Virus record (IMG/VR): IMGVR_UViG_3300047586_000083
Span: 1-62,866 of that record
Strand: one strand, 5' to 3'
From: a virus
Length of the DNA: 62,866 bases
How positions within the stretch are numbered: position 1 is the stretch's first letter; the number at the start of each line of letters is the position of its first letter. Positions 1 to 62,866 of this stretch are shown here, one piece after another. Made by a program: the position numbers and the translations under genes. The notes under the pieces are model-generated. The model saw only the letters and a list, made by a program, of their open reading frames with translations. It searched no databases and had not been told where the DNA came from.

Positions 1-127
1 AATACTCGCAGACACCTTGTCGGCAACATTCGAGGACATCATGGTGCGCAATCAGCGCAAGCTGCGCGCCCGGTACCACGATGCCGAATTTCACCGCGAC
101 ATGGCCGTGACGCGGGACTTGCCGACA
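1..127. repeat. Exact 127-nt duplication of the window end (62740-62866). It is an assembly overlap indicating a circular or terminally redundant genome
   Basis: Base-by-base comparison: aatactcgcagacaccttgtcggcaac...gcgggacttgccgaca is present at both ends. Confidence 0.95.
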
Positions 128-157
128 GAACGCGCCCGGCTGGAGGCATCAGAGTAA
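1..157 (+). CDS. MazG-like NTP pyrophosphohydrolase, C-terminal end (continues ORF 62339..62866 across the junction)
   Basis: Codon phase at 62866 continues at nt 128. Reads ...RNQRKLRARYHDAEFHRDMAVTRDLPTERARLEASE, stop TAA 155-157. Confidence 0.7.
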   Translation, partial: ILADTLSATFEDIMVRNQRKLRARYHDAEFHRDMAVTRDLPTERARLEASE

Positions 158-158
158 C

Positions 159-461
159 ATGCTCATTACTGAGGAACTTCAAGAGGCATTAGCCACCAAC
201 ATTGAACGGGATGCCGTTTATAAGGACGGCTGGCGGACGCATGCCCTCGTGATGCTGGCGCTGTTCCCTGAAGGGATACCGGCCCGGACGATGGAAGAGA
301 TGGCGCGGTTTGGATTCCTGTCCATGATCGTGACTAAGTTGGTGCGGTATTGTACATTCATGCCGCATCCCGATTCCATTCACGATCTTGGCGTATACGC
401 CTTCATGCTCGAACACCTAGACAAAGAGGCATCCGTCAATGCCGCACCCTCTGCAACGTGA
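159..461 (+). CDS. Small all-alpha protein, MazG-related / DUF6378-like (tentative)
   Basis: 100 aa. ATG lies 1 nt after the previous stop. Motif IVTKLVRY..HPDSIHDLGVYAFMLEHL resembles the K..R...D..D...Y helix pair of MazG-type phage proteins. Confidence 0.45.
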   Translation: MLITEELQEALATNIERDAVYKDGWRTHALVMLALFPEGIPARTMEEMARFGFLSMIVTKLVRYCTFMPHPDSIHDLGVYAFMLEHLDKEASVNAAPSAT

Positions 462-464
462 CCT

Positions 465-668
465 ATGACCTTCCAGCAAAATTCAGTCAAGCGGGATTGC
501 GCCATATGTGTGAAGCCAATCCTGCCTGGATTCTGGATGCTGGATCTATTCCGGCAGGCGTCCGCTAAGGAAGCGGCAACGGAACGGGTGGAATGGGTGC
601 ACGAGAGTTGCGCGCGGGCCGCTATCGAAGCGTGGCTGAAGAAGAAACGAGAGAAGGCTGCCAAATGA
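465..668 (+). CDS. Hypothetical small protein with CxxC
   Basis: 67 aa, 'RDCAICVKP', basic C-terminus. Packed between neighbours; its stop overlaps the next ATG (ATGA). Confidence 0.5.
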   Translation: MTFQQNSVKRDCAICVKPILPGFWMLDLFRQASAKEAATERVEWVHESCARAAIEAWLKKKREKAAK

Positions 669-1201
669 TAGTTATCGACAATGAAACAACTCACCTAACC
701 GTACCAGAGGCAGCACCAATTGAACAGCAACCGTCCGTCACGGAGTTTGCCGCCATCCGGTTGGATGATAAGACACTAAAGGAAGTCAACAGGATGCAAT
801 TCCTGTGTGACCCTCGGGTTCCCATCCCACCCGAGAGTATCGCCATTACTGGGATCACCAATGAGATGGTCAAGGGCCGTCCGCCATTCTCCGCTTTCTT
901 CCCTGCCCTGGTGGATTACTTTTTGGGAGAGCGGACGGTGGCAGCGCACAATCTGTCCTTTGACATCGCGGTCCTGCGCCATGAGATCAACCGCCTAGGC
1001 CGGGTCACTGCTTTCCCCTGGCCACCTGTACAGATTTGTACTGTGGAACGAACAATCAACCTGAAGGGTCATCGGCTGAACCTCGGTGACTTACACCTGT
1101 TGCTGACTGGAAAGGAACACAAGGACGCGCACCGCGCCATGGCAGATGTGGAGGCACTTTGCCGGGTGATACGGGCGCTCCGAAAGAAAGGCCTGTTATG
1201 A
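665..1201 (+). CDS. DnaQ-like DEDDh 3'-5' exonuclease (copy 1)
   Basis: ExoI 'VIDNETT', ExoII 'AHNLSFDIAVL', ExoIII 'HRAMADVEAL'. Start moved to ATG 665 (MIVIDNETT), which is ATGA-coupled to the upstream gene. Confidence 0.85.
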   Translation: MIVIDNETTHLTVPEAAPIEQQPSVTEFAAIRLDDKTLKEVNRMQFLCDPRVPIPPESIAITGITNEMVKGRPPFSAFFPALVDYFLGERTVAAHNLSFDIAVLRHEINRLGRVTAFPWPPVQICTVERTINLKGHRLNLGDLHLLLTGKEHKDAHRAMADVEALCRVIRALRKKGLL

Positions 1202-2980: not shown

Positions 2981-3264
2981 CGGATTCGACAGCATTCTCA
3001 ACAACCTTATACGCAGAACACGATAGCAAGGGCCAACCTTGCTGTGGTTGCGTTGAGGTTCTCATCAACAAACAAACCGGGCGCTGCCTGATGCTCTGTA
3101 ACGAGTGCGGAGCGGAGATGGGCGCAGGCACCGAACGAACAACGAAAGATGACCCGGACGGATTCTGGAAACAGCAGGAGCGAGTACCGGAGAGCACCCG
3201 AGTATTCTGGAATGGTGGAGCGTATGTCACAAGTGAATCCCATAATGGGCCGGTCATCCTTTGA
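2968..3264 (+). CDS. Hypothetical Cys-rich (zinc-ribbon-like) protein
   Basis: 98 aa, 'SKGQPCCGCVEVLINKQTGRCLMLCNECG'. Overlaps the helicase stop and the radical-SAM start. Confidence 0.5.
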   Translation: MALLTDSTAFSTTLYAEHDSKGQPCCGCVEVLINKQTGRCLMLCNECGAEMGAGTERTTKDDPDGFWKQQERVPESTRVFWNGGAYVTSESHNGPVIL

Positions 3265-3964
3265 CCTTTCGATCATGTACAGCCGTGAATGCAATCTTCA
3301 TTGCCTTCATTGTATGTACAGCGCCGGGCCGGATATGCATGACCAATTGGACCTAGATGCACTGCGCCGTTTCATTACCACATGGGATTGGCGCGTGAAC
3401 TCTGTAGGGTTCTATGGCGGAGAAGTTACTCTCCAACTGGCTGCGTATAAGTCCATTTGCGATATGCTTCCAGCGGGACTCCAACGATGGATGTTCAGTA
3501 ATGGTACTTGGTCCGCAGGACCATCAGAGCGAATCCACGAAGTCATTCAATGGACTATTGATAATCGAGTTTCACCCATCATCGTAAGTGGGACCCGTTA
3601 TCACCAGCCATATCAGGATTGGGCGGTGCTAGAGAGTCTGGCGCGAACCTGGCCTGAGCACATCTGGCTCAAGGCTGACGAAGGTCACTATCTACCAATG
3701 GGACGGTTGGCTGGGCTGATGCCATTCTCCTGTAAGCGCCGTTGCGAGACAGACGCCCGGCCCATGCGGATCGCAGTACAACCGGACGGGTCCGTGATCT
3801 TTCAGACCTGTGACGGGCGGTATCCTGTGATTGGCGACATAACGGCAGGCTTCCCAGAACTAGCAGACCGTTGCACGGGTGTCCGCGAGAATTATTGCCG
3901 TGCGGCGGAGGTTGGTGACTTTGACGCTATGGATGGGACGGTGGACAGTGAAACCCTCGCCTAA
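3224..3964 (+). CDS. Radical SAM enzyme with a C-terminal twitch/SPASM-like Cys region
   Basis: 'RECNLHCLHCMY' (CxxxCxxC), 'FYGGEVTL' (GGE SAM motif), C-terminal 'RCETDARPMRIAVQPDGSVIFQTCDGRYPVIGDI...C...C'. Start chosen at ATG 3224 (GGTGGAG 5 nt upstream); 3212 and 3245 are also possible. Confidence 0.8.
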   Translation: MSQVNPIMGRSSFDLSIMYSRECNLHCLHCMYSAGPDMHDQLDLDALRRFITTWDWRVNSVGFYGGEVTLQLAAYKSICDMLPAGLQRWMFSNGTWSAGPSERIHEVIQWTIDNRVSPIIVSGTRYHQPYQDWAVLESLARTWPEHIWLKADEGHYLPMGRLAGLMPFSCKRRCETDARPMRIAVQPDGSVIFQTCDGRYPVIGDITAGFPELADRCTGVRENYCRAAEVGDFDAMDGTVDSETLA

Positions 3965-4292
3965 GCGCCAGCCCGCTGTCCGGGTGCCGCCCGCCCGCGA
4001 CTGGCAGCAGGAAGCCATCGACTGCGGCAAACGGCAAGCCATCATCCAGGCCGCCAATCTTCGCAATCACGGGCGCTATCGGGTTGGGGACTTTGTCCGT
4101 GTACTCTCGGAGGTAAGCGCCTATTACCTGCTCATTGGCCGGGTGGTAGAGATCACCCGTTTCAATGACAGCGGTATAATCGAGTTTACAGACGCCATGC
4201 TACAAAGCGCCCGCAATCCTGAACAAGTAACCAGCGCCAAGCGCCGGGTGCACTTCTATTGGCGCATGCTGCAAGAGGTAATCGTATGCTGA
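3933..4292 (+). CDS. Hypothetical protein
   Basis: 119 aa from the internal ATG 3933 of ORF 3879..4292. Overlaps the radical-SAM 3' end. Start uncertain. Confidence 0.4.
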   Translation: MGRWTVKPSPKRQPAVRVPPARDWQQEAIDCGKRQAIIQAANLRNHGRYRVGDFVRVLSEVSAYYLLIGRVVEITRFNDSGIIEFTDAMLQSARNPEQVTSAKRRVHFYWRMLQEVIVC

Positions 4293-4501
4293 AACAATTC
4301 GGGTTGTTCTTTCAACGGTCATACAACTGGTTCCACTATGGCGGATTCCAAGAATGGCTGTACCGCGTTCCCGGTTATCCCAAACGTTGCTTTGTCTGTG
4401 GCCATTGGTACTGGTTGCGCGACGGTCACAAATACTGGGATGAGGCTGCTGACTCTATGTGTAGTGATGAGTGCCAGCGCCAATACTTCAGGATACTCTA
4501 A
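4286..4501 (+). CDS. Hypothetical zinc-finger protein (FCS-like)
   Basis: 71 aa, 'RCFVCGHWYW...SMCSDECQRQY'. ATG 4286 overlaps the previous stop. Confidence 0.5.
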   Translation: MLKQFGLFFQRSYNWFHYGGFQEWLYRVPGYPKRCFVCGHWYWLRDGHKYWDEAADSMCSDECQRQYFRIL

Positions 4502-4731
4502 TGCCTACGACAACCAGAAAGATCATCCTACCTGACTTGGCGAAAGAGTATTATGACGTCAAGCAGGCCTATGCCTTTCTCGCCACTCCGGTGCCCGAAG
4601 GATACCGGCGCTGGATATGTCTGCTGTGTGGATTCCCGGCAGACTTTCGCGCCACCTGCGATTGGGTTGGTGCCGTCTGCTGTGGAGGGTGTGGACAAAG
4701 TTGCGTCCGTCCCATTGAAGAATGGAAGTGA
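4501..4731 (+). CDS. Hypothetical Cys-rich protein
   Basis: 76 aa, 'WICLLCGF...ATCDWVGAVCCGGCGQSC'. TAATG overlap with the previous gene. Confidence 0.5.
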   Translation: MPTTTRKIILPDLAKEYYDVKQAYAFLATPVPEGYRRWICLLCGFPADFRATCDWVGAVCCGGCGQSCVRPIEEWK

Positions 4732-4744
4732 AAGGAGTTAGGTC

Positions 4745-5044
4745 ATGCAAGTTGGAACATATAAGGCATTACACTTCGGAGGTTTTGAAAATGGAACCCC
4801 ACCAAGATCCAAGACCATTCCAAAGATCAAGGCCCTAGCAGACGCGCCGGAAACCAGTCAAGAGTTGAACCCGCTGCTAGCAATGGGCCGTCTGATGCTG
4901 GATCATCAATTGGTTGGAGAGAAGCTGCGCAGTTTGCATCTTGACCCGGATGCCTACCACGGCAATTTACAAGTGGTCTCTACCACGTTGAGTTGGATGC
5001 GAACTTTGATCACAATGATGATAGAGCAATGTGAAGGAAAATGA
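4745..5044 (+). CDS. Hypothetical protein
   Basis: 99 aa, strong SD AAAGGAG 7 nt upstream, ATGA overlap with dnaE. Confidence 0.55.
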   Translation: MQVGTYKALHFGGFENGTPPRSKTIPKIKALADAPETSQELNPLLAMGRLMLDHQLVGEKLRSLHLDPDAYHGNLQVVSTTLSWMRTLITMMIEQCEGK

Positions 5045-7878
5045 TCAACCTACGGGTCCGAACTGAATACACCTTCAGCGGCGCTTACGGCCCGCTGCCG
5101 AAGGTCTTGGCCGCAGTGCGGGATGCGCCGTCAGTTGGAATTGCAGACCGCCATGGCACCTGGGGCCACGTTGCTTTCAGCAAAGCCTGTAAGAAGGCCG
5201 GCAAGCAGCCGATCTTTGGCGTTGAATTGGGCGTGGTATCCGTCCTAGAGCGAGAGCGCCACCCGTCTAACTGGATGGCCTTCTTAGCCCGGACTGATGC
5301 CGGATTGCAGGAGTTATATGAACTGGTCACCGAGTCAACAACAGATGACCATTTCTATTACCACCCACGCATCGACTACAAACGCTTATCAGCAGTCACA
5401 GACAATCTCATCATCCTTTCCGGCACCAACCCTATCTGGGACCGTCTTCCCAAGCGCCAAAAGAACCTATATGTGGAACTTGCCCCCAGTAGTCAGCCTG
5501 CTGCGGTAGAGTGGGCACGCGCCAACCGCCGTCCGCTTGTGGCTACCTCGGACAACTATTATCCCGCGTTCGAGAACCGGGCGGTGTACGAGATCATTGC
5601 CGGCCGCAACCGGGACTCCCGTACCACGCCCATGCACATCCTGGACCGCTGGGAATGGCTTAACTATTGGCCGGGTCAGACGGCTGCCCTGGACATGACG
5701 CGGGCGCTGGCAGCGGAGTGCCGCGCCGTCATCCCCCAGGCCAAGATGGTCAAGTACCATAGCAAGCAGACCCTGGAGCAGATGTGCCGCGCCGCAGCGC
5801 CCGCGCGTGGGATCAATCTCAAAGACCCGGTATACAAGGCCCGGTTGAGGAGAGAGTTAGACCTGATCACAGAAAAGGATTTTGATGACTACTTCTTTGT
5901 GATCGCGGACATGCTGCGGTACGCCAAACAGCATATGCTGGTTGGCCCGGCACGCGGTAGCAGTTGCGGTTCGCTGGTTTGCTATCTTCTATCCATCACA
6001 GAGATTGATCCAATTCCATTCAGCCTCATCTTTGAACGTTTCATTGACATCAACCGTAAGGATCTGCCCGACATAGACATTGACTTTCCTGATGACCGGC
6101 GCGAGATGGTGTTTGAGTATATCCGGCAGAAGTATGGCGTGGATTGTGTTGCCCGCCTAGGCACCATCATGCGTTACAAGGCCAAGAGTGCCATTGACGT
6201 TGTGGCAATATCCTTGAAGATTCCCATTGGGGAAGTGGAGAATTTGAAGGGTGCCATCATTGAACGTAGCGGTGGTGACGCGCGGGCCGCTTTCTGTATT
6301 CTGGATACCTTCAATGAGTTGGAAGTGGGGAAGACTATGCTGGCTAAGTATCCCCATTTGCGTGTGGCTGCGGACATCGAGATGCACGCCCGTGGTACTG
6401 GGCAGCACGCAGCCGGCATCGTCATTACTGCTGAACCCATCAGCAAGTTCTGCTCTCGCAATATGCAGACGGGCGCCATCATGGTGGACAAATATGATGC
6501 TGAGGCAGTCAACCTTCTCAAGATAGACGCCCTAGGGTTGCGCACTCTCTCGGTCATTCAAGATTGTCTTGACCAGATAGGTCAATCGCGGGAATGGTTG
6601 ATGAAGCGCCCGTTGGGTGATGAGGATGCGTTCGATGTCATCAACAACAGTAGGTTCGCGGGCATCTTCCAATTCGAGGGATATGCGCTGCAATCCCTCT
6701 GTCAGCAGATGAAGATTGAGGACTTTGAAGACATCGCATCCCTAGGCGCTTTGGCCCGGCCTGGGCCGCTGAACTCGGGTGGTGCGAATGAATTTGTTAA
6801 GCGCCGTACCGGACAAGTGCCAGTGACCTATCTACATCCACTATGCAAGGAGATGACCAAGGTGACTTATGGCGTGGTCATCTATCAGGAACAGGTCATG
6901 CAGATCGGGCGCGTGGTGGGGCAATTGTCCTGGGAGGATGTGAGTGAACTCCGAAAGGCAATGGCAAAGTCAAAGGGCCAGGAGTTTTTTGACCAATACT
7001 GGAACAAGTTCCGGGCCGGTGCTCTCGCTCAGGGAGTAACGGAAGAGGATGCCAACCAGATCTGGAAAAACATCAATACCATGGGCAGCTGGTCCTTCAA
7101 CCGGAGTCACGCCGTATCCTACGGGATGGTTACTTACTGGTGTATGGTGCTGAAAGCCCACTACCCATTGGAATGGGCCACGGCCTGTCTTCGCCATGCC
7201 TCAGGCGCGGATCAATGTGTCAAGCTGCTACGTGAGTTGGACTCGGAAGGTTACAAGTACAAGGACTTCAACATACAACGGAGTGAGATCAATTGGTCAG
7301 TGAAGGATGGCTTATTGATTGGCGGACTTCTGAATGTAGATGGAGTTGGCCCGAGCAAGGCTGAGGGCATAATGGAGCGCCGAAGGGCCGGGCGTCCGCT
7401 TACTCCCGCCATGCAGAAGAAACTAGAGGCAGCCGTTACTCCGTTCAGTTATGAGAAGGTGTTTGAGTGTCGAGTAAGGTTTGGTGATCTTCTGAAGAAT
7501 CCATCCCGGTACAACATCTCATCCAAGATTTGGCGCCTATCAGACATCACCAGCGAGATGGAAGGTGAATTTGTCTTTCTCGGGAAAATGGTCAAGAAGG
7601 ATTTGCGTGACCTGAATGAACCTCTCTTCCTACAGAAGCGTGGCGGGCGCTATGAGACGGGCCAGACCCTTTTCTTGAACATGACTGTGGAGGATGATAC
7701 CGCCAGCATTCTTCTATCTGTGAACAAAAGGGATTATTTGGACATTGGTAAGCCACTAGTGGAGACGGGCCGGATTGGTGAATGGTACTTGTGGAAGGGC
7801 TGGATGCGGCGCGGGTTCCGAAAGGTTTATGTGAAACGATGCTGGCCGGAATCGCGTTTCAACACTCCAGTGGAATAA
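5041..7878 (+). CDS. dnaE: DNA polymerase III alpha subunit (DnaE-type C-family replicase), compact 945-aa form
   Basis: N-terminal PHP region; 'LVGPARGSSCGSLVCYLLSITEIDP', 'DIDIDF', 'KIDALGLRTLS', 'ALARPGP', 'YQEQVMQI', 'SHAVSYG'. Confidence 0.9.
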   Translation: MINLRVRTEYTFSGAYGPLPKVLAAVRDAPSVGIADRHGTWGHVAFSKACKKAGKQPIFGVELGVVSVLERERHPSNWMAFLARTDAGLQELYELVTESTTDDHFYYHPRIDYKRLSAVTDNLIILSGTNPIWDRLPKRQKNLYVELAPSSQPAAVEWARANRRPLVATSDNYYPAFENRAVYEIIAGRNRDSRTTPMHILDRWEWLNYWPGQTAALDMTRALAAECRAVIPQAKMVKYHSKQTLEQMCRAAAPARGINLKDPVYKARLRRELDLITEKDFDDYFFVIADMLRYAKQHMLVGPARGSSCGSLVCYLLSITEIDPIPFSLIFERFIDINRKDLPDIDIDFPDDRREMVFEYIRQKYGVDCVARLGTIMRYKAKSAIDVVAISLKIPIGEVENLKGAIIERSGGDARAAFCILDTFNELEVGKTMLAKYPHLRVAADIEMHARGTGQHAAGIVITAEPISKFCSRNMQTGAIMVDKYDAEAVNLLKIDALGLRTLSVIQDCLDQIGQSREWLMKRPLGDEDAFDVINNSRFAGIFQFEGYALQSLCQQMKIEDFEDIASLGALARPGPLNSGGANEFVKRRTGQVPVTYLHPLCKEMTKVTYGVVIYQEQVMQIGRVVGQLSWEDVSELRKAMAKSKGQEFFDQYWNKFRAGALAQGVTEEDANQIWKNINTMGSWSFNRSHAVSYGMVTYWCMVLKAHYPLEWATACLRHASGADQCVKLLRELDSEGYKYKDFNIQRSEINWSVKDGLLIGGLLNVDGVGPSKAEGIMERRRAGRPLTPAMQKKLEAAVTPFSYEKVFECRVRFGDLLKNPSRYNISSKIWRLSDITSEMEGEFVFLGKMVKKDLRDLNEPLFLQKRGGRYETGQTLFLNMTVEDDTASILLSVNKRDYLDIGKPLVETGRIGEWYLWKGWMRRGFRKVYVKRCWPESRFNTPVE

Positions 7879-56896: not shown

Positions 56897-57508
56897 ATGG
56901 CAATTGATATCAGCAAAGACACCGCCACCATCGTTAGCGCCAAGAACGTCGCAGCAGTGGTTGAGCAGGCCCGCCTGTTGATGAAGCTGGAAATTGAGAT
57001 TGCTCGTTTGGAAACTGCCCTGAAGGAAAAGAAGACAGCCCATAACCTTTTGGCCACCGAGACGCTACCGGGTCTGATGGACTCCGCTGGCATTGAGGGT
57101 CTTCCCTTACGGCATGGATACGAGCTAGAATTGAAGAAGGTGTTGCGTGCATCTCTTCCAGCCAAGTCCACCATCGAGAATGCGGATGAAGAAGAGCAGC
57201 CCATGTTGATCCGTCGGTTCAAGGACGGTCTGGCGTGGCTGCGAAAGCACAAGGCCCAGGACATCATTCGCAACACGCTCAAAATCGACCTAGGGAAAGG
57301 ACAAGACCGCGAAACACGCGAGATACTGGCGTTGGCCAAAAGGCTGAAGGTGCCGGTGGATCGCTCCGAGACGGTACACCCTGCCTCTTTGTCTAGCTTT
57401 CTCCGAGAGAGGCTGGCCAACGGCGCAGAGGTTCCGTTTGAAACATTCGGCGTATTCAACGGCAGAGAAGCCAAGATCAAACCGCCCAAGAAGGGCAAGG
57501 AGAGTTAA
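56897..57508 (+). CDS. Hypothetical coiled-coil protein, first gene of the plus arm
   Basis: 203 aa. N-terminal helix 'EQARLLMKLEIEIARLETALKEKK'. Confidence 0.5.
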   Translation: MAIDISKDTATIVSAKNVAAVVEQARLLMKLEIEIARLETALKEKKTAHNLLATETLPGLMDSAGIEGLPLRHGYELELKKVLRASLPAKSTIENADEEEQPMLIRRFKDGLAWLRKHKAQDIIRNTLKIDLGKGQDRETREILALAKRLKVPVDRSETVHPASLSSFLRERLANGAEVPFETFGVFNGREAKIKPPKKGKES

Positions 57509-57513
57509 GCATC

Positions 57514-58461
57514 ATGGGGAAGATTGACCCGAAGAAACGCGCACCAGCACCAACCAAGGCTGACGCGCCCGCCAAGAAGCCTATCATTACTCCGGCACCG
57601 CCCAATCGCGCCATAGCCCGGCGCGGCCCGGCACCGGGTGAAGAAACCGCCGTGGCCTTGCGCCCGGCCATCGATGAACTGCTGTTCGCCGATGCCGGCA
57701 GCGGCATGGAAGGGATGAAGCAGGAAGATTTTGCCATACCTCGATTGGCGATTCTTCAGGCCCTTTCTCCGCAAGTCAACAAGCGGGATGAGAACTACAT
57801 CGAGGGCGCTGAAGCCGGTATGATCTATGACAACGTCAGCGGCAATCTGTACGATGGCCAGGAAGGTATCCTGTTGGTGGTGGTATCCTATCGGCGGGCG
57901 CACCTTCAGTGGTGGCCGCGCGACAGCAACAAGGGCAAGGGATTCATCAAGGATTGGGGTGCTGATCCCAGCATCCTCAACCAGACCACTCGCAGCGACA
58001 AAGGCGCCAACCTTCTAAAGGACGGCAGCGAGATTGTCGCCACGGCGGAATACTTCGCCTTCCTGGTGGATGAAGCCACGGGCGATTTTGACCGCGTGCT
58101 GGTGGCTATGAACAAGACGCAGATGATCAAAGCCAAGAAGTTCAACACCATCGCGTCTTCCCTCATGGTCCAGGTTAGCGGGCAACCTCGGCAAGCGCCG
58201 TTGTTCTTCCGGGCCTATCGCTTCAAGACCAAACCCGAGTCCAACGACAAGGGCAATTGGTTCGGGTGGGAGATTGTGCCCGCCCAGGCGCTGCTGGTGA
58301 ATGACATGGGCATGGAAGTTCTGCCCTATGGGGAAAGGTTGTACTTGGAGGCACGGGCCTTCCGGCAGCAGGTCCTCACGGGTGGCGTCAAGGTTGCCGC
58401 GCCGATGGAAGACGGGCACATTGGCGCGAGTGCTGGCGCATCGGACGACGCCCCGATGTAG
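57514..58461 (+). CDS. Hypothetical protein (possible ssDNA-binding/recombination role, from context only)
   Basis: 315 aa. Basic Pro/Ala N-terminus, 'FAIPRLAILQALSPQ', 'GNWFGWEI', acidic C-terminus. Confidence 0.45.
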   Translation: MGKIDPKKRAPAPTKADAPAKKPIITPAPPNRAIARRGPAPGEETAVALRPAIDELLFADAGSGMEGMKQEDFAIPRLAILQALSPQVNKRDENYIEGAEAGMIYDNVSGNLYDGQEGILLVVVSYRRAHLQWWPRDSNKGKGFIKDWGADPSILNQTTRSDKGANLLKDGSEIVATAEYFAFLVDEATGDFDRVLVAMNKTQMIKAKKFNTIASSLMVQVSGQPRQAPLFFRAYRFKTKPESNDKGNWFGWEIVPAQALLVNDMGMEVLPYGERLYLEARAFRQQVLTGGVKVAAPMEDGHIGASAGASDDAPM

Positions 58462-58567: not shown

Positions 58568-58960
58568 ATGGATAGCGAAGGACAAGAAGTTACCACGGCG
58601 GTGCCCGAGACTCAGGCACCCGCTAAGAAGAAGGTTAAGAAGACCGCGCCGAAGAAACCGGCCAAGAAGGCCATCAAGAAGGCTGCCGCGAAGAAACCGG
58701 CCAAGAAGGCTGCCAGCGGAGAGCACAAGGGCCGGCAGAGCGCCTATAACGGACGGCGGATCATTCGGGCCAAGGCTGATGAAGAGACGGGCCTGCGCAA
58801 GACGGGCCGGGTGAGGGAATGCTGGGATGCCATCCCCAAGGGCACGCGCGGCATCTTGTTCAAGGATTACCGTGTGGCCGCCGGCAAGAACAACTACGGC
58901 CTGGCGCGGCTGGCGCTGGCCGGGTTCCTGAAGAAGGGAATCGCCAAGCTGCTGAAGTAG
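58568..58960 (+). CDS. Histone H1/AlgP-like Lys/Ala-rich DNA-binding protein
   Basis: 'APAKKKVKKTAPKKPAKKAIKKAAAKKPAKKAAS' followed by an ~80-aa globular domain. SD AAGGAG. Confidence 0.55.
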   Translation: MDSEGQEVTTAVPETQAPAKKKVKKTAPKKPAKKAIKKAAAKKPAKKAASGEHKGRQSAYNGRRIIRAKADEETGLRKTGRVRECWDAIPKGTRGILFKDYRVAAGKNNYGLARLALAGFLKKGIAKLLK

Positions 58961-59046: not shown

Positions 59047-59274
59047 ATGAGCCATACCATCATCACCGCCCATCAGCATGGGTTCCGTCCTGGTGACGTT
59101 GTGCGTATTACCGGCATCGCAGGCAAGCCCGCGTCCTATCGCGTCACGGCTGTTCAAGATCACCGGATGACCCTGCGGCCCGCCCGCTGGTACGTTAGAC
59201 TATGGGGAGCGGTACGGCGGGCCGGGCGCTGGTTGCGGCGCATGGCCAACCACCTGCGGGAGATTGGGAAATGA
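59047..59274 (+). CDS. Hypothetical small basic protein
   Basis: 75 aa, SD GGAGG 5 nt upstream. Confidence 0.5.
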   Translation: MSHTIITAHQHGFRPGDVVRITGIAGKPASYRVTAVQDHRMTLRPARWYVRLWGAVRRAGRWLRRMANHLREIGK

Positions 59275-60251
59275 ACAATTACAAGCACGTCATTGTTGGC
59301 GCCGGTATCGGCGGGCTATCGTTCGCCGCAGAATTGAAGCGGATGGGCTGTAATGACTTTGTCATCCTGGAACGTCAGCCGGACATCCCTTTCAACCTCT
59401 ACAACGGAGTCCACTATCTTCACGGCATTGACTTCGTTACACCCTTTCCATTCAACTTCGTGGAAGTCCCGAGCACCGAGCAGATCTGGAATCCCAAGCG
59501 GGATGAGTTCAAGGACCGCGCCAGCCTGCCCGAGATGCTGGAGTATTCCCTCAAGTTGATGAACATTCGTCATACTTCGGCAATCATGCATCCCGGCAAC
59601 CGTATGTGGCCCACCTATCTGCCGGAGAGTCACGACCTGAATGACCTTCTGCGCGCCTATCGGGATTACATCGGCTTTGTCCATTTCCAATTCAACGCGC
59701 CAGTGGCATGGATCAACCCGGAAGGGCGGTTGCTGGAAGCGGGAACCCGAACGCAGTACAGTTACCAGCATATGGTAACTACTATGCCGCTGGACTTCCT
59801 TCGGGAACTAACGCCAACGCTTTCCCCCACCCTCCAAGGAATCACCTTCCAGAAACGCGCCATCCACATCACCAACTACATTACCACTGGAATAGTGCGC
59901 AATTGGCGCATTCAGTTGTATGTGGCTGATGCTCAGTTTCCTGTCTATCGCATTACGGTTCTGAACGGCATCCTCTCGATGGAATCCCTGCAGGCGCTCT
60001 CTGTCGAGGATGAAGTTATCATCCGGTACCATCTCCAACGCTACTTTGAGTATGAACTCAGTAGCAAGTCCACCTATATCTGGCCAACTGGCCGGATCTG
60101 GGGCATCACCAAAGAGGAACGCCGAACGATAACTGCAGAACTGGCCACTGCTGGTATCTATCCACTAGGAAGATTTGGCCAATGGGATGGCAAGATGAAC
60201 ATGGACACTACCATCCAATCAGCAATCCAACTCGCAAAGGAAATGGCATGA
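59271..60251 (+). CDS. FAD/NAD(P)-binding flavoprotein (UDP-galactopyranose mutase / amine-oxidase-like fold)
   Basis: 'HVIVGAGIGGLSFAAEL' dinucleotide fold. C-terminal 'GRFGQWDGKMNMDTTIQSAIQLA'. ATGA coupling. Confidence 0.6.
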   Translation: MNNYKHVIVGAGIGGLSFAAELKRMGCNDFVILERQPDIPFNLYNGVHYLHGIDFVTPFPFNFVEVPSTEQIWNPKRDEFKDRASLPEMLEYSLKLMNIRHTSAIMHPGNRMWPTYLPESHDLNDLLRAYRDYIGFVHFQFNAPVAWINPEGRLLEAGTRTQYSYQHMVTTMPLDFLRELTPTLSPTLQGITFQKRAIHITNYITTGIVRNWRIQLYVADAQFPVYRITVLNGILSMESLQALSVEDEVIIRYHLQRYFEYELSSKSTYIWPTGRIWGITKEERRTITAELATAGIYPLGRFGQWDGKMNMDTTIQSAIQLAKEMA

Positions 60252-61081
60252 ACATAAGACTGATCACATACACACCGCAGCCGGAAAAGTCAATTGCCGC
60301 TGCGATGCTCAATATGGGAATTGGGTTTGACTGTACGGATCTTGACCAGATTTCGGATGCTCAAGCCCAAGACGCGCTGCGGGAGATATTCGCCAGTCAC
60401 CTAGACGCGCCGCTGGAATACGCCAGCTTCAACTTCTTTTGGGAAGACATCCCGCTATTCCTCCGGGCGCACCTGGTACGGCATCGCGTGGGGTGGGGCT
60501 TTGCGGAACGTTCGCTGCGGTTCTATGATGCCAATCTGCGGAACCCGGTTGAGCATTTTGACTTTGCCGCCATCCCTACGGTACGGGATGTGCCGGCCCG
60601 GAACCCGGTGCTGGGCGGGCGCTCGATTGCCTCTCTCTTCCATTCCGAGATGGAACGGCAGATGGAATTTTACCGCCTGATGCTGGAGGAAGGTATCGAC
60701 CAGCAGGACGCCCGCACCCTCATTGGCACCTGGTATCCCACGGCCATGCAGACAACCTGCACCTATCGGGCGCTTAGGGCTATGCTTGCTGACCGGCTGA
60801 GCAGTCAGGCGCATCCCTTCTGGCAGCAGGCAGCCCTCCAGATCAAGGCCCTAGTCACCCGTGTAGCGCCCGCCCTAGGCGCGGCCCTGGTAGACTCGTG
60901 CGAGATACACCAACGGTGCGTTTGGAACTCCCGGTTGGATCGGCAATGCGATGCCTGCGTGGCGAGAGGTAGAAAGAAGGCCCATGAACATATCTGGGAC
61001 CGCGCCACTACGCTTGGCGAGAATACCCAATGCGCCTGCGGCACGATGCGACCCAAGCTGCTATCGGACGGAAGGCGGTGA
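60248..61081 (+). CDS. thyX: ThyX-like flavin-dependent thymidylate synthase homologue with a Cys-rich C-terminal tail
   Basis: 'APLEYASFNF', 'LRAHLVRHRVGWGFAERSLRFY' (RHR-x8-S-x-R-F). Tail 'CEIHQRC...CDAC...CAC'. Confidence 0.55.
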   Translation: MNIRLITYTPQPEKSIAAAMLNMGIGFDCTDLDQISDAQAQDALREIFASHLDAPLEYASFNFFWEDIPLFLRAHLVRHRVGWGFAERSLRFYDANLRNPVEHFDFAAIPTVRDVPARNPVLGGRSIASLFHSEMERQMEFYRLMLEEGIDQQDARTLIGTWYPTAMQTTCTYRALRAMLADRLSSQAHPFWQQAALQIKALVTRVAPALGAALVDSCEIHQRCVWNSRLDRQCDACVARGRKKAHEHIWDRATTLGENTQCACGTMRPKLLSDGRR

Positions 61082-61566
61082 CCATTGTGATTCCTCAAGT
61101 ATTGGAAACGCACCAAACGTTCGCTCTCAACCTTCGGCCTGCGGCCGGCATCCTAGACATGGACGGCTGCTTGACGGAATGCATACCGGGTTTGTTCATG
61201 AACTGGGATGACATCGCAGAAAGCACGCACATCATGAATGCCTCTCCACCCAACCACCCGCTACTGAACTTGACACGCGTGCTACTCGGGTCAAGACGGC
61301 TGACGGTGATTGTGATGACGGCGCGGCCTGAGCGATACAGGTTGATTACTGTGGAATGGCTTCAACGGTATGGCGTGGTGCCGGACTTCCTACTGATGCG
61401 GGCGAATGATGATGTGCGGCCCGATAAGGAAGTCAAGCGGAGTCACCTGGTGGCCATTCGAGAGCATCATGACATCTGGTTCTCTGTCGAGGATCGGGCT
61501 GGCGTGGTAAAGATGTGGCGCGAGGAAGGCATCACTTGCCTCCAATGCGCAGAAGGGAACTATTGA
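61078..61566 (+). CDS. HAD-superfamily phosphatase / nucleotidase
   Basis: GTG 61078 (GTGA overlap, GGAAGG upstream). 'ILDMDGCL', 'VIVMTARPE', 'K...', 'SVEDRAGVV'. Confidence 0.6.
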   Translation: MTIVIPQVLETHQTFALNLRPAAGILDMDGCLTECIPGLFMNWDDIAESTHIMNASPPNHPLLNLTRVLLGSRRLTVIVMTARPERYRLITVEWLQRYGVVPDFLLMRANDDVRPDKEVKRSHLVAIREHHDIWFSVEDRAGVVKMWREEGITCLQCAEGNY

Positions 61567-61567
61567 C

Positions 61568-62104
61568 ATGGACAGAATCAATCAGGTGGATGTGTCCACC
61601 CTGTATTACTGCATCGGCACGCTTTGCTTTGGCTGTCGAAATGGCATTGACGTTCATCCAAATGGATCAGGCGGATTGGTGCATGATAATGGGTATGGCA
61701 TGTGCTCCTTGGCGCTCCTAAGAGAGGCACAGCCGCAGGCATTCGCGGATCACCAGAAGATTGCCCGCTACAACGCCAAGGCAATAGTGCCCTCCGTCCT
61801 TCAGCAACCTACACCCGAGTATCAAGAGGATCAGCGGGCCATCTGGGCATGTGTCATCGAGGATATGCGACACCGGGATGCCTTCGGCGCTCGGAAGTAT
61901 GGCACCCGGCTGCAAGCCTTCAATGGGCGTGACCCCATCATCGATGCCTATCAGGAAGCCTTGGACCTGGTGGTGTACCTGAAGCAGTTGTTCATAGAAC
62001 GCGCCAGGGCAATTAGGCTGCTAGAGGGTTTGACTATTGCAGAACCTGACAGCAGAAGCCGTGCCATCGACCTTGTCCTAAACATTCTGAAGGGAACCCA
62101 ATGA
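61568..62104 (+). CDS. Protein with a C-terminal MazG-related (dATP/dGTP pyrophosphohydrolase-like) helical domain
   Basis: 'MRHRDAFGARKYGTRLQAFNGRDPIIDAYQEALDLVVYLKQL'. N-terminal Cys-containing region. Confidence 0.5.
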   Translation: MDRINQVDVSTLYYCIGTLCFGCRNGIDVHPNGSGGLVHDNGYGMCSLALLREAQPQAFADHQKIARYNAKAIVPSVLQQPTPEYQEDQRAIWACVIEDMRHRDAFGARKYGTRLQAFNGRDPIIDAYQEALDLVVYLKQLFIERARAIRLLEGLTIAEPDSRSRAIDLVLNILKGTQ

Positions 62105-62358
62105 CCGGCGCCAAGTTTGTCCGGTTCAAGCGCCCCGAGACGGGCGGTGTGGATGAGCCAACCATCTTCATCAACACCGCTCTCATCACGCATGCTGCTT
62201 TCAATGGCCCGCCCACAGCCCGCCGTTGTACCCTGCTGCTGGTTAACCACCGGGACTGGCCACCAGCTTATATCACCATTGACTACGATCCAGCGAGTGT
62301 GTCCCGGTTGGAGAATATCCTATCTGAGGGGTACTATCATGAGAATTACCAATGCTGA
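62101..62358 (+). CDS. Hypothetical protein
   Basis: 85 aa, ATGA overlap. Confidence 0.45.
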   Translation: MTGAKFVRFKRPETGGVDEPTIFINTALITHAAFNGPPTARRCTLLLVNHRDWPPAYITIDYDPASVSRLENILSEGYYHENYQC

Positions 62359-62866
62359 ATATTCCATCGGTGCGCTCCGAACCGAGTCACCCGTGACACC
62401 GGAGATGGTCGCCCGATTCACAGACCCAGAGACGGCGGTGCTGTTTCTTTCCGCCATTCAGGCCATCATCACCCAGGGCCAGGAAATGGACAAGTTGAAA
62501 AAGCACTTGTTCTATGAGAAACCGCTCCCAACCTTCGGCAGCCGGCAGCATTGGGTAGCGCCCGCCGTCCTAGAGCGCCTAAGCAATCCGGGCGTCATCC
62601 GGCTGCTCCATGCCGCCATCGGGCTGGTAACCGAGTCAGCAGAGCTATTCGAGATGCTGTATGCGCATGTGGTTGAAGATGAGAAGTTAGACCCGTTCCA
62701 TTTGATCGAGGAAGCGGGCGATCAGTTCTGGTACCTCGCAATACTCGCAGACACCTTGTCGGCAACATTCGAGGACATCATGGTGCGCAATCAGCGCAAG
62801 CTGCGCGCCCGGTACCACGATGCCGAATTTCACCGCGACATGGCCGTGACGCGGGACTTGCCGACA
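62339..62866 (+). CDS. MazG-like NTP pyrophosphohydrolase (N-terminal 176 codons; continues at nt 128-157; 185 aa in total)
   Basis: 'LVTESAELFE', 'HLIEEAGDQFWYLAILAD', 'IMVRNQRKLRARY'. The ORF is open at the window end. Confidence 0.7.
   Translation, partial: MRITNAEYSIGALRTESPVTPEMVARFTDPETAVLFLSAIQAIITQGQEMDKLKKHLFYEKPLPTFGSRQHWVAPAVLERLSNPGVIRLLHAAIGLVTESAELFEMLYAHVVEDEKLDPFHLIEEAGDQFWYLAILADTLSATFEDIMVRNQRKLRARYHDAEFHRDMAVTRDLPT
62740..62866. repeat. Second copy of the 127-nt terminal duplication
   Basis: Identical to nt 1-127. Confidence 0.95.

Follow-up and report, generated by a model that had tools for sequence, protein, structure and literature searches.

Does a phage that encodes its own ThyX-type thymidylate synthase beside an unexplained second flavoenzyme merely supply thymidylate (dTMP), or does it place a more elaborate pyrimidine in its DNA? 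The question is raised by a block of closely packed genes, all on the same strand, in IMG/VR virus record IMGVR_UViG_3300047586_000083, a stretch of 62,866 nucleotides (hereafter, the window). The block encodes a flavoprotein, a ThyX, a phosphatase of the HAD superfamily and several smaller proteins (Table 1). An initial annotation, made from the letters of the window, had treated it as something special to this genome, in which three MazG-type enzymes remove competing canonical deoxynucleoside triphosphates (dNTPs). Judged by gene content and gene order, the block is instead a divergent copy of a widespread phage module that is predicted to act on pyrimidines and opens a DnaE-type replication operon. 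Its role in a pathway of thymidine modification is credible, but unproven.

The flavoprotein and its ThyX partner

The flavoprotein carries a Rossmann GxGxxG motif (Pfam NAD_binding_8), and its AlphaFold (AF2) model has a mean predicted local distance difference test score (pLDDT) of 93.7. The top PDB folds found for this model by Foldseek are eukaryotic UDP-galactopyranose mutases (UGMs), at E 3e-16 and query-normalized TM-scores (TMq) of 0.69–0.72, with about half of the target covered (target-normalized scores, TMt, of 0.45–0.52); other GR2 flavoproteins, namely amine oxidases, protoporphyrinogen oxidase and a renalase-like protein, stand close behind in the ranking. The family profile likewise matches a UGM sequence in the PDB at E 4.6e-7, in an alignment that places LYVADAQFPVYRIT of the flavoprotein on LYFPEDNCPFYRAT of UGM, the segment carrying Y317 and the diphosphate-binding R327 of the Aspergillus fumigatus enzyme (AfUGM), and that places the C-terminal GRFGQW on the UGM sequence GRFGSW (GRFGxW motif). 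Both the Rossmann motif and the UGM-like C-terminus described in the initial annotation are thereby borne out. Throughout the wide flavoprotein family, R227, E238 and G300 are invariant and Y217 is nearly so, the retained UGM tyrosine standing ten residues upstream of the diphosphate-binding arginine.

In comparison with the UGMs of A. fumigatus and Trypanosoma cruzi, which are its best fold matches, the flavoprotein shares the Rossmann FAD site, the LY..(10)..YR(A/I)T motif and GRFGxW; however, it is only 326 amino acids (aa) long against 380–510 aa, is 11–15% identical, and in the model has its uridine-binding helical domain reduced to two helices. Moreover, GRFGQWDGK stands where UGM has GRFGSWRYE, such that a tyrosine is exchanged for Gly-Lys and the phosphate-binding tyrosine pair (AfUGM Y419/Y453) is not reproduced. 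The UGM family model TIGR00031 gives 12.8 bits against a cutoff of 303.75 and covers the Rossmann segment only, and no GLF family occurs among the Pfam matches of the protein.

Close relatives of this flavoprotein number 33 among 5.8e9 clustered proteins, all of them metagenomic and none named, and an exhaustive profile search widens the family to 418 representative clusters at E < 1e-10, again without a named member and with lengths of 310–340 aa. A pattern scan of 185,579 cellular genomes, which covers the close family (the broader alignment, A6, being too divergent for scanning), returned no close relative. Among deposited phages, a blastn search of the block against 50,697 records and a tblastn search with the window flavoprotein each gave zero matches, and no deposited phage was found to hold a close relative of either the window flavoprotein or the window ThyX; the link to cultured phages described below surfaced solely through profiles and folds. 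The flavoprotein family accordingly appears to be virus-only.

The Thy1 fold of the second protein is indicated by its Pfam match (87 bits to PF02511, where the cutoff is 24.8) and by an AF2 model (pLDDT 92.7) for which ThyX and PolB are the top Foldseek folds, with the ThyX of Thermotoga maritima (1o27) at E 4.8e-11 and TMt 0.78. To the NCBI equivalog model TIGR02170 it scores 76.2 bits, under the cutoff of 87.9. The signature RHR-VGWGFAER-S-L-R follows the pattern RHR-x8-S-x-R-F that had been noticed earlier, with one residue more than in PolB and T. maritima ThyX and in place of the canonical RHR-x7-S-x-R. Within the window ThyX clade, which comprises about 110 proteins and is set apart by a fall in bit score from 140 to 45, the RHR triplet varies to RSH or RAR, and Gly-Trp is inserted in the motif. 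The six-cysteine tail, also noticed earlier, holds two conserved histidines besides, since C218, C224, C234, C237, H246, H248, C262 and C264 are kept in at least 90% of 43 sequences. The residues by which the T. maritima enzyme binds deoxyuridylate (dUMP) and FAD, namely E58, R78, E86, S88, R90, R147, R165 and R174, are all identical in the family profile; H53 is replaced by Leu (immediately preceded by an aromatic residue), N163 by Thr and H178 by Gln. The profile search, structure prediction and active-site check that had been proposed with the initial annotation yielded best fold matches to UGM and to ThyX, and a ThyX in which these eight dUMP/FAD residues are kept.

The window ThyX consequently resembles canonical ThyX (T. 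maritima TM0449, Mycobacterium tuberculosis, PBCV-1) in its Thy1 fold and its eight substrate-binding residues, but departs from it in the x8 spacing, the changes at H53, N163 and H178, the extra Cys6His2 domain of about 60 aa and the score below the TIGR02170 cutoff. Its sole single-sequence match in the PDB (E 6.8e-6), and its second-best fold, is PolB (4p5a/4p5b), a C5-methylase of UMP and dUMP in polyoxin biosynthesis, which shows that the substrate of a ThyX homologue can be altered; PolB is only about 21% identical, has the normal x7 spacing and lacks a Cys/His tail. As a separate observation, three ThyX proteins of ordinary length from Firmicutes-type metagenome bins (P0145–P0147) share C218 and C224, both of them invariant in alignment A3, and have one or two further cysteines. 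The phage clade may therefore be younger and less widely spread than a short Cys motif behind the ThyX core. A role of the tail as an Fe-S relay from the flavoprotein to the FAD of ThyX was considered and rejected, because the flavoprotein also pairs with tail-less ThyX (loci L010, L015, L018 and L019), and the tail therefore cannot account for the pairing.

This pairing recurs at every locus examined: a ThyX gene lies 0–2.5 kb downstream of the flavoprotein homologue, on the same strand, in 25 of 25 loci. The loci comprise 19 metagenomic or viral contigs (seven with close relatives, two with remote family members taken from the exhaustive search, nine viral ones and one found through ThyX) and six cultured phages, that is, Pbunavirus DL60 and F8, Wifcevirus WFC, Xylella phage MATE2, Cronobacter phage Ss1 and Rhizobium phage TM30; L014 is a near-duplicate of L002 and L005 of L004, and the flavoprotein candidate is weak in the contig found through ThyX (L007, 15.6 bits). 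The pairing persists at flavoprotein identities of 17–30% and over several ThyX subclades, whether or not these have the Cys/His tail. In deposited phages, moreover, the numbers of records with a gp41-type flavoprotein and with a DL60-type ThyX are the same within each genus (Pseudomonas 292/292, Escherichia 27/27, Serratia 9/9 and Xanthomonas 6/6), and the ThyX proteins of Gordonia, Mycobacterium and archaeal viruses turn up in the ThyX search and not in the flavoprotein search. From this distribution, the flavoprotein and the phage-clade ThyX appear to be an obligate pair.

The genes that accompany the pair are variable but of a nucleotide or sugar type, and include dCTP deaminase, MazG or DUF1599 proteins, methyltransferases, a GHMP kinase with an NTP_transferase, a short-chain dehydrogenase/reductase (SDR) with an aldo-keto reductase, and NT5C. 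For instance, a GHMP kinase with an NTP_transferase adjoins ThyX in L006 (3218–4895), NT5C, SDR and aldo-keto reductase genes do so in L007 (7094–11087), and a FabG-like SDR does so in Wifcevirus and the Xylella phage (L021, 8198–8881; L022, 7817–8512). In L003, a stand-alone protein of the RapZ C-terminal domain (6166–6531; Pfam PapZ_C, which denotes that domain, 4.7e-16) stands between flavoprotein and ThyX beside a DUF1599 protein, which is an unusual setting for it. A contig with the flavoprotein–ThyX pair, L009, also encodes a DnaE-type polymerase fused to a domain of the uracil-DNA-glycosylase superfamily (3937–7665; PF03167), which hints at a special handling of uracil or modified pyrimidines in replication.

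The module in cultured phages and the accessory genes of the window

At the profile level, the window flavoprotein family (alignment A1) matches gp41 of Pbunavirus DL60 and gp065 of Pbunavirus F8 at 37–40 bits; these two proteins define phrog_4828, which the window flavoprotein itself matches weakly, and one deposited record of the gp41 type is annotated as "UDP-galactopyranose mutase". For ThyX, the profile-level homology to Pbunavirus and Wifcevirus amounts to 111–112 bits. In Pbunavirus DL60 and F8, Wifcevirus WFC and Xylella phage MATE2, the genes follow the order flavoprotein, ThyX, a protein combining HAD_PNKP with a DUF6378-like domain, in some cases an SDR, then a DEDDh exonuclease and DnaE; the module genes are gp065-gp059-gp057 in F8, gp41-gp47-gp49 in DL60 and WFC_00070-00068-00067 in WFC, and F8 also encodes a MazG-like protein, gp049. 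The layout is looser in the Cronobacter podovirus Ss1, where a DnaE-type polymerase follows downstream of flavoprotein and ThyX, and in the Rhizobium phage TM30 (207 kb), where the flavoprotein lies upstream of ThyX. The window agrees with the Pbunavirus and Wifcevirus module in order and strand, and has DnaE, helicases, the exonuclease and genes like gp33 and gp34 of Pam3 in common with F8. It differs in that the HAD and Nmad1-like domains are split with three extra genes between them, and in that its ThyX bears the Cys6His2 tail, whereas the C-terminus of the Pbunavirus ThyX is different and longer.

The HAD phosphatase was identified in the initial annotation as a DxDG-type enzyme, which agrees with a match to HAD_PNKP (PF25109) at 69.9 bits against a cutoff of 27.6 (E 3.3e-19), with matches to phrog_415 and phrog_505, and with the nucleophile motif DMDG at residues 43–46 of the long open reading frame (ORF). 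Its gene is homologous to the N-terminal half of the protein encoded downstream of ThyX in the Wifcevirus, Xylella and Pbunavirus phages. The small helical protein at 159..461 belongs to a family in which four of seven members match DUF6378 (best E 3.6e-4), and hhalign gives a probability of 75% (E 2.6e-5) for its relation to a DUF1599 protein, DUF1599 being described in Pfam as "nucleotide modification associated domain 1". Since the HAD gene and the 159..461 gene match the same ORFs in L021 and L022, where WFC and MATE2 encode a single protein downstream of ThyX, these two genes represent the halves of one conserved protein (159..461 the C-terminal one), which is fused in the Pbunavirus, Wifcevirus and Xylella phages and whose halves are separated by three inserted genes in the window. 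The conserved core of the module is accordingly predicted to consist of a short flavoprotein of UGM fold, a ThyX of the phage clade and a HAD phosphatase of PNKP type that is combined with a helical, DUF6378/Nmad1-like domain.

Of the three genes that had been taken as MazG-type, only one is supported as MazG-like, and the argument built on three such enzymes removing canonical dNTPs loses the support of the other two. The gene that spans the ends of the window matches phrog_229 ("MazG-like pyrophosphatase") at 1.7e-32 and Pfam MazG at 19.9 bits, slightly under the cutoff of 22, and the ExxE/ExxD metal motifs can be read in its sequence as ESAE and EEAGD. The 159..461 protein is DUF6378/DUF1599-like and gave no MazG match, and single-sequence PDB searches with all three supposed MazG proteins returned nothing. 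For the protein at 61568..62104, neither the sequence nor a 39-member profile found anything meaningful in the PDB or Pfam, and hhalign gave 0.2% probability to the MazG-like gene and less than 1% to both the DUF1599 protein and the 159..461 protein. Its C-terminal domain, with the consensus W..V..D...KYG..LQ.FNGRD..DAYQEALD..YL, has 254 homologues, all without annotation, and its PHROG matches are families lacking an assigned function. In two homologues, P0309 and P0408, such a domain is fused N-terminally to a PRA-PH pyrophosphatase, and in P0309 it lies beside, not inside, the PRA-PH domain; it is thus predicted to be associated with pyrophosphatases rather than to be one. The domain is preceded in the window by a Cys-rich segment (61568–61780, plus strand; YYCIGTLCFGC...GMC) that is mostly absent from homologues and may be a small metal-binding addition. 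Neither the MazG-like gene nor genes of the 61568..62104 type are conserved in the module at related loci. The MazG-like pyrophosphatase and the small lineage-specific genes are probable insertions in the window copy.

A possible thymidine modification and its alternatives

The functional interest of the module derives from the cultured phages that carry it. DNA of Pbunavirus F8 resists restriction enzymes with TG in their recognition site, and liquid chromatography–mass spectrometry of F8 and 14-1 DNA detected thymidine derivatives of 362 and 390 Da, of sugar-alcohol and pentose type (PMC12191111, a 2025 preprint). About a quarter of thymine is replaced, in TG context, by a form with a sugar on the C5-methyl group of thymine, and according to the authors Pbunavirus is without homologues of known hypermodification genes (PMC12191111). 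Wifcevirus, in turn, resists restriction-modification systems by no known protection mechanism (PMC11990801). Because Pbunavirus and Wifcevirus both carry the homologous module, it is present in two cultured groups with proven or suspected modification for which the genes are unassigned. A phage-encoded UGM that feeds DNA glycosylation has, moreover, been proposed in Pootjesviridae (PMC13326640, 2026). By mass arithmetic, deoxyuridine (dU) less H plus C5H11O4 gives C14H22N2O9, or 362.13 (dU with a 1-deoxypentitol), and dU less H plus C6H11O5 gives C15H22N2O10, or 390.13 (dU with a hexosyl group); the same masses equally describe ethers or glycosides of 5-hydroxymethyldeoxyuridine (5-hmdU) with a tetritol or a pentose, so that they are arithmetic and not mechanistic evidence.

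Known thymidine hypermodification, as in phages M6, ViI, PaMx11, SP10 and PhiW-14, starts from a ThyA-type dUMP hydroxymethylase and proceeds through a 5-hmdU DNA kinase and aGPT-Pplase transferases (PMC8989533). The window block resembles those clusters in that phage pyrimidine C5 chemistry is encoded next to genes of replication, and a flavoprotein and enzymes of pool editing may take part in both; the flavoprotein gp47 of PaMx11 is, however, MnmC1-like, whereas that of the window is UGM-like. None of the ThyA-type hydroxymethylase, the 5-hmdU DNA kinase and aGPT-Pplase was found in 27 window proteins compared with Pfam and/or PHROGs, a scan that had small ORFs and the late region outside it. 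Literature searches on UGM together with ThyX, on PapZ, on DUF1599 and on Nmad1 yielded nothing of relevance.

The reading favoured here, held tentatively, is that the module helps to make a non-canonical and probably sugar-bearing thymidine in phage DNA, that is, more than dTMP. The proposal of the initial annotation, that the block goes beyond thymidylate salvage and could specify a non-canonical pyrimidine or its sugar decoration, gains indirect though real backing from a virus-only, ThyX-linked flavoprotein and from the module of Pbunavirus and Wifcevirus, and no backing from the argument on three MazG enzymes. A sugar on the C5-methyl group of thymine would fit this expectation, because a sugar-handling flavoenzyme would be working with a flavoenzyme that acts on uracil C5. 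In such a pathway, ThyX would supply flavin-mediated one-carbon chemistry at uracil C5, giving dTMP or an activated 5-methylene or 5-hydroxymethyl intermediate; the UGM-like flavoprotein would bind a phosphorylated sugar or nucleotide-sugar through its Arg/Tyr motif and ready or transfer the sugar moiety; the HAD phosphatase would strip a phosphate from a nucleotide or sugar-phosphate intermediate; and the MazG-like enzyme would hydrolyse a competing or precursor dNTP. The product would be a thymidine derivative with a sugar-derived group on the C5 carbon. We infer each of these enzymatic steps, as well as a modified DNA in the window phage and the responsibility of the module for the modification in Pbunavirus.

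A more particular and rather improbable proposal is that the UGM-like flavoprotein and ThyX form a system of two flavoenzymes that alkylates the C5 of uracil or thymine with a sugar. The reduced flavin N5 would attack the anomeric carbon and open the sugar to a flavin-iminium, as in UGM, and activated uracil C5 would capture the iminium, as in ThyX; alternatively, a hydroxyl of the sugar would capture an exocyclic 5-methylene arising from ThyX chemistry. Reduction or ring closure would then lead to deoxyuridines of the 5-(polyhydroxyalkyl) or 5-glycosyl type, possibly on DNA, with the Cys6His2 tail acting as a zinc-containing DNA-binding module. The compositions of such products fit the published Pbunavirus nucleosides (362 and 390).

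Several considerations weigh against a role of the module in modification. The window flavoprotein is only 17–20% identical to Pbunavirus gp41 and has NGVHYLH where the latter has ALLRFR in the flavin-proximal loop, and many other genes common to Pbunavirus and Wifcevirus could make the modification. Among the scanned ORFs of the window, neither a glycosyltransferase nor a 5-hmdU DNA kinase nor an aGPT-Pplase came to light. The TG context calls for a further step at the level of DNA, and since about 75% of Pbunavirus thymine is canonical, plain dTMP is needed in any case. ThyX keeps the residues expected of an ordinary dUMP methylase. These last points lead to the main rival, a strong one although on balance unlikely, in which ThyX makes dTMP, the flavoprotein is a dedicated helper of ThyX and the virion DNA is canonical, with the MazG-like and HAD enzymes feeding or trimming the pool (dUTP to dUMP, clearance of dNMPs). 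The helper might be an NAD(P)H-dependent reductase for the ThyX flavin, or an oxidase or isomerase that gives the methylene donor, for example, from methylated folate or an amine. In addition to the retained ThyX fold and substrate-binding residues, such plain supply gains from the dCTP deaminase upstream in several loci, which completes a simple route from dCTP over dUTP and dUMP to dTMP, from the presence among the best folds of eukaryotic UGMs (5vwt, 5vwu), enzymes whose own FAD is reduced by the NAD(P)H they bind, from a co-occurrence with ThyX as strict as that of an obligate accessory subunit, and from the lack of known hypermodification genes among the window proteins scanned. However, cellular and many viral ThyX enzymes work without such a partner, and the ThyX genes of Gordonia, Mycobacterium and archaeal viruses have no counterpart in the flavoprotein search; a UGM fold with a sugar-diphosphate-binding arginine would be odd for a simple reductase; and the Nmad1-like domain, the sugar-type neighbours and the modified DNA of Pbunavirus would all be left unexplained.

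The synteny could in part be inherited, because all the loci belong to one broad DnaE-replication supergroup, and an extension of this argument, which is very improbable, regards the pair as unrelated neighbours kept by vertical inheritance in an old replication module, the flavoprotein acting elsewhere, on a nucleotide-sugar for host-surface or virion glycans or on a redox metabolite. Common descent is indeed evident, since all loci share DnaE, the DEDDh exonuclease and helicases, and depending on the lineage zero to six unrelated small ORFs stand between the two genes. Yet the pair survives where nearly everything between and around it was replaced; it spans a podovirus of 42 kb, myoviruses of 60–70 kb, a jumbo phage of 207 kb and numerous metagenomic lineages as well as different ThyX subclades, with identical counts per genus, and its two genes share an ATGA overlap in the window. 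There is similarly little probability in the idea that dNTP-pool editing is the purpose of the block, with three MazG-type enzymes and the HAD phosphatase removing one canonical dNTP in order that the product of ThyX and the flavoprotein be incorporated. In its favour, the block has one genuine MazG-like gene and a HAD phosphatase, relatives encode an NT5C deoxyribonucleotidase and dCTP deaminases, and the arrangement recalls phages with U-DNA and hmU-DNA (the PBS2 and SPO1 pathways). Against it, two of the three supposed MazG genes fail all MazG tests run, neither the MazG-like gene nor the 61568..62104 type is a conserved part of the module, and replacement of about 25% of thymine in TG context in Pbunavirus points to modification on DNA rather than to replacement in the pool. 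A sugar-bearing thymidine continues to be the reading preferred here.

Operon layout, genome closure and implications

The first 127 nucleotides (nt) of the window are identical to its last 127 nt by exact comparison; therefore, the assembly is circular and the actual genome measures 62,739 bp. In the circular reconstruction, the MazG-like gene at the junction is a genuine ORF of 185 aa, running from 62339 to 62866 and on to window position 157; because 62740–62866 repeats 1–127, it resumes at 128..157. The co-directional, coupled arrangement across the junction that had been described for seven genes was verified by this ORF and by inspection of the gene overlaps, and these genes turn out to be part of a longer coupled chain that extends both ways. 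ATGA overlaps occur at 59271, 60248 and 62101; a GTGA overlap at 61078, preceded by a GGAAGG Shine-Dalgarno sequence, is the likely start of the HAD gene; 1-nt spacers precede 61568 and 159, and the overlap at 62339 is 20 nt.

Table 1. Features of the flavoprotein–ThyX block and its immediate surroundings (window coordinates)
Feature	Coordinates	Strand	Basis and remarks
75-aa ORF	59047..59274	+	GGAGGA Shine-Dalgarno, ATG at 59047; stop overlaps flavoprotein ATG (59271) as ATGA
326-aa FAD-type flavoprotein, UGM / amine-oxidase (GR2) fold	59271..60251	+	Pfam NAD_binding_8, AlphaFold, Foldseek, profile vs UGM
277-aa divergent ThyX (Thy1 fold), C-terminal Cys6His2 domain at about residues 215–265	60248..61081	+	Pfam Thy1, AF2, residue mapping
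HAD-superfamily phosphatase, PNKP type	61078..61566	+	GTG start likely; alternative ATG 61030
178-aa protein, Cys-rich N-terminus and conserved C-terminal domain of about 70 aa	61568..62104	+	No Pfam/NCBIfam match
85-aa hypothetical ORF	62101..62358	+	ATGA overlap with preceding gene; no family matches
MazG-like all-alpha NTP pyrophosphohydrolase	62339..62866 + 1..157	+	1–127 repeats 62740–62866
127-nt terminal duplicate of window 1–127	62740..62866	.	Exact identity; assembly overlap of circular contig
100-aa helical domain protein, DUF6378/DUF1599-like	159..461	+	phrog_4889 6.4e-8; alignment A5
67-aa Cys-containing small protein	465..668	+	Coupled to exonuclease gene; no family matches
DEDDh (RNase_T-type) 3'-5' exonuclease	665..1201	+	Pfam RNase_T 1.4e-22; ATGA junction; precedes DnaE

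Downstream, the chain continues with the 67-aa Cys-containing protein, the DEDDh exonuclease, a RecD-like helicase, a radical-SAM-like protein and a DnaE-type polymerase (5041..7878). Homologues of the exonuclease are present in L001, L011, L021–L023 and L025, and the small ORFs at 59047..59274, 62101..62358 and 465..668 have zero homologues in the related loci. The radical-SAM-like protein (3149–3964, plus strand) has a CNLHCLHC (CxxxCxxC) motif and a Pfam Radical_SAM score below cutoff, its nearest NCBIfam matches being a YydG-type epimerase (1.4e-8) and NrdG-type activases; it was considered as a part of the module, and no homologue was found in eight related loci (L001–L008). Just upstream of the block, a 130-aa protein (58568–58960, plus strand) has an N-terminal half rich in Lys, Ala and Pro with a histone-H1-like basic repeat, AKKKVKKTAPKKPAKKAIKKAAAKKPAKKAA; this protein carries no family assignment. 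Farther upstream (56897–58461, plus strand) are two genes that match Pfam families built on gp33 and gp34 of cyanophage Pam3; such genes also occur in Pbunavirus F8 (gp052, gp051) and tie the replication region of the window to that supergroup. Early and replication genes occupy the plus strand, beginning at about 56.9 kb and continuing across the junction as far as about 24 kb, and genes on the minus strand occupy about 24.5–56 kb and include very large ORFs (1646 and 1251 aa). The cumulative GC skew has its turning points near 20 kb and near 56 kb and thereby tracks the direction of transcription.

The individual folds were already known, and the module is present in deposited phage genomes as "hypothetical protein" entries beside ThyX; no paper describing a flavoprotein–ThyX–HAD module was found in the literature search. 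What appears to be new is the recognition of a virus-only family of flavoproteins with UGM fold that constantly accompanies one clade of phage ThyX, a third component with HAD and Nmad1-like parts that is either split or fused, and the coincidence of the module with thymidine hypermodification whose genes are unassigned.

A specific candidate gene set, common to Pbunavirus, Wifcevirus, the window and hundreds of uncultured phages, can accordingly be named, which makes the question of the modification genes testable. Pbunaviruses are among the phages most used in Pseudomonas therapy, and the matter is thus of relevance to phage therapy as well as to restriction evasion and sequencing artefacts. 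If the favoured reading is true, the module would provide a new enzymatic route to modified DNA bases from two enzymes of flavin N5-adduct chemistry, together with a marker by which modified genomes could be predicted in metagenomes; should both flavoenzymes act together in the alkylation itself, hypermodified thymidine would be reached independently of ThyA-type hydroxymethylases, DNA kinases and aGPT-Pplases. Even if the module is not responsible for the modification, the flavoprotein would still be a previously unrecognised obligate partner of phage ThyX, with a bearing on how this enzyme obtains its reducing power or its one-carbon supply.

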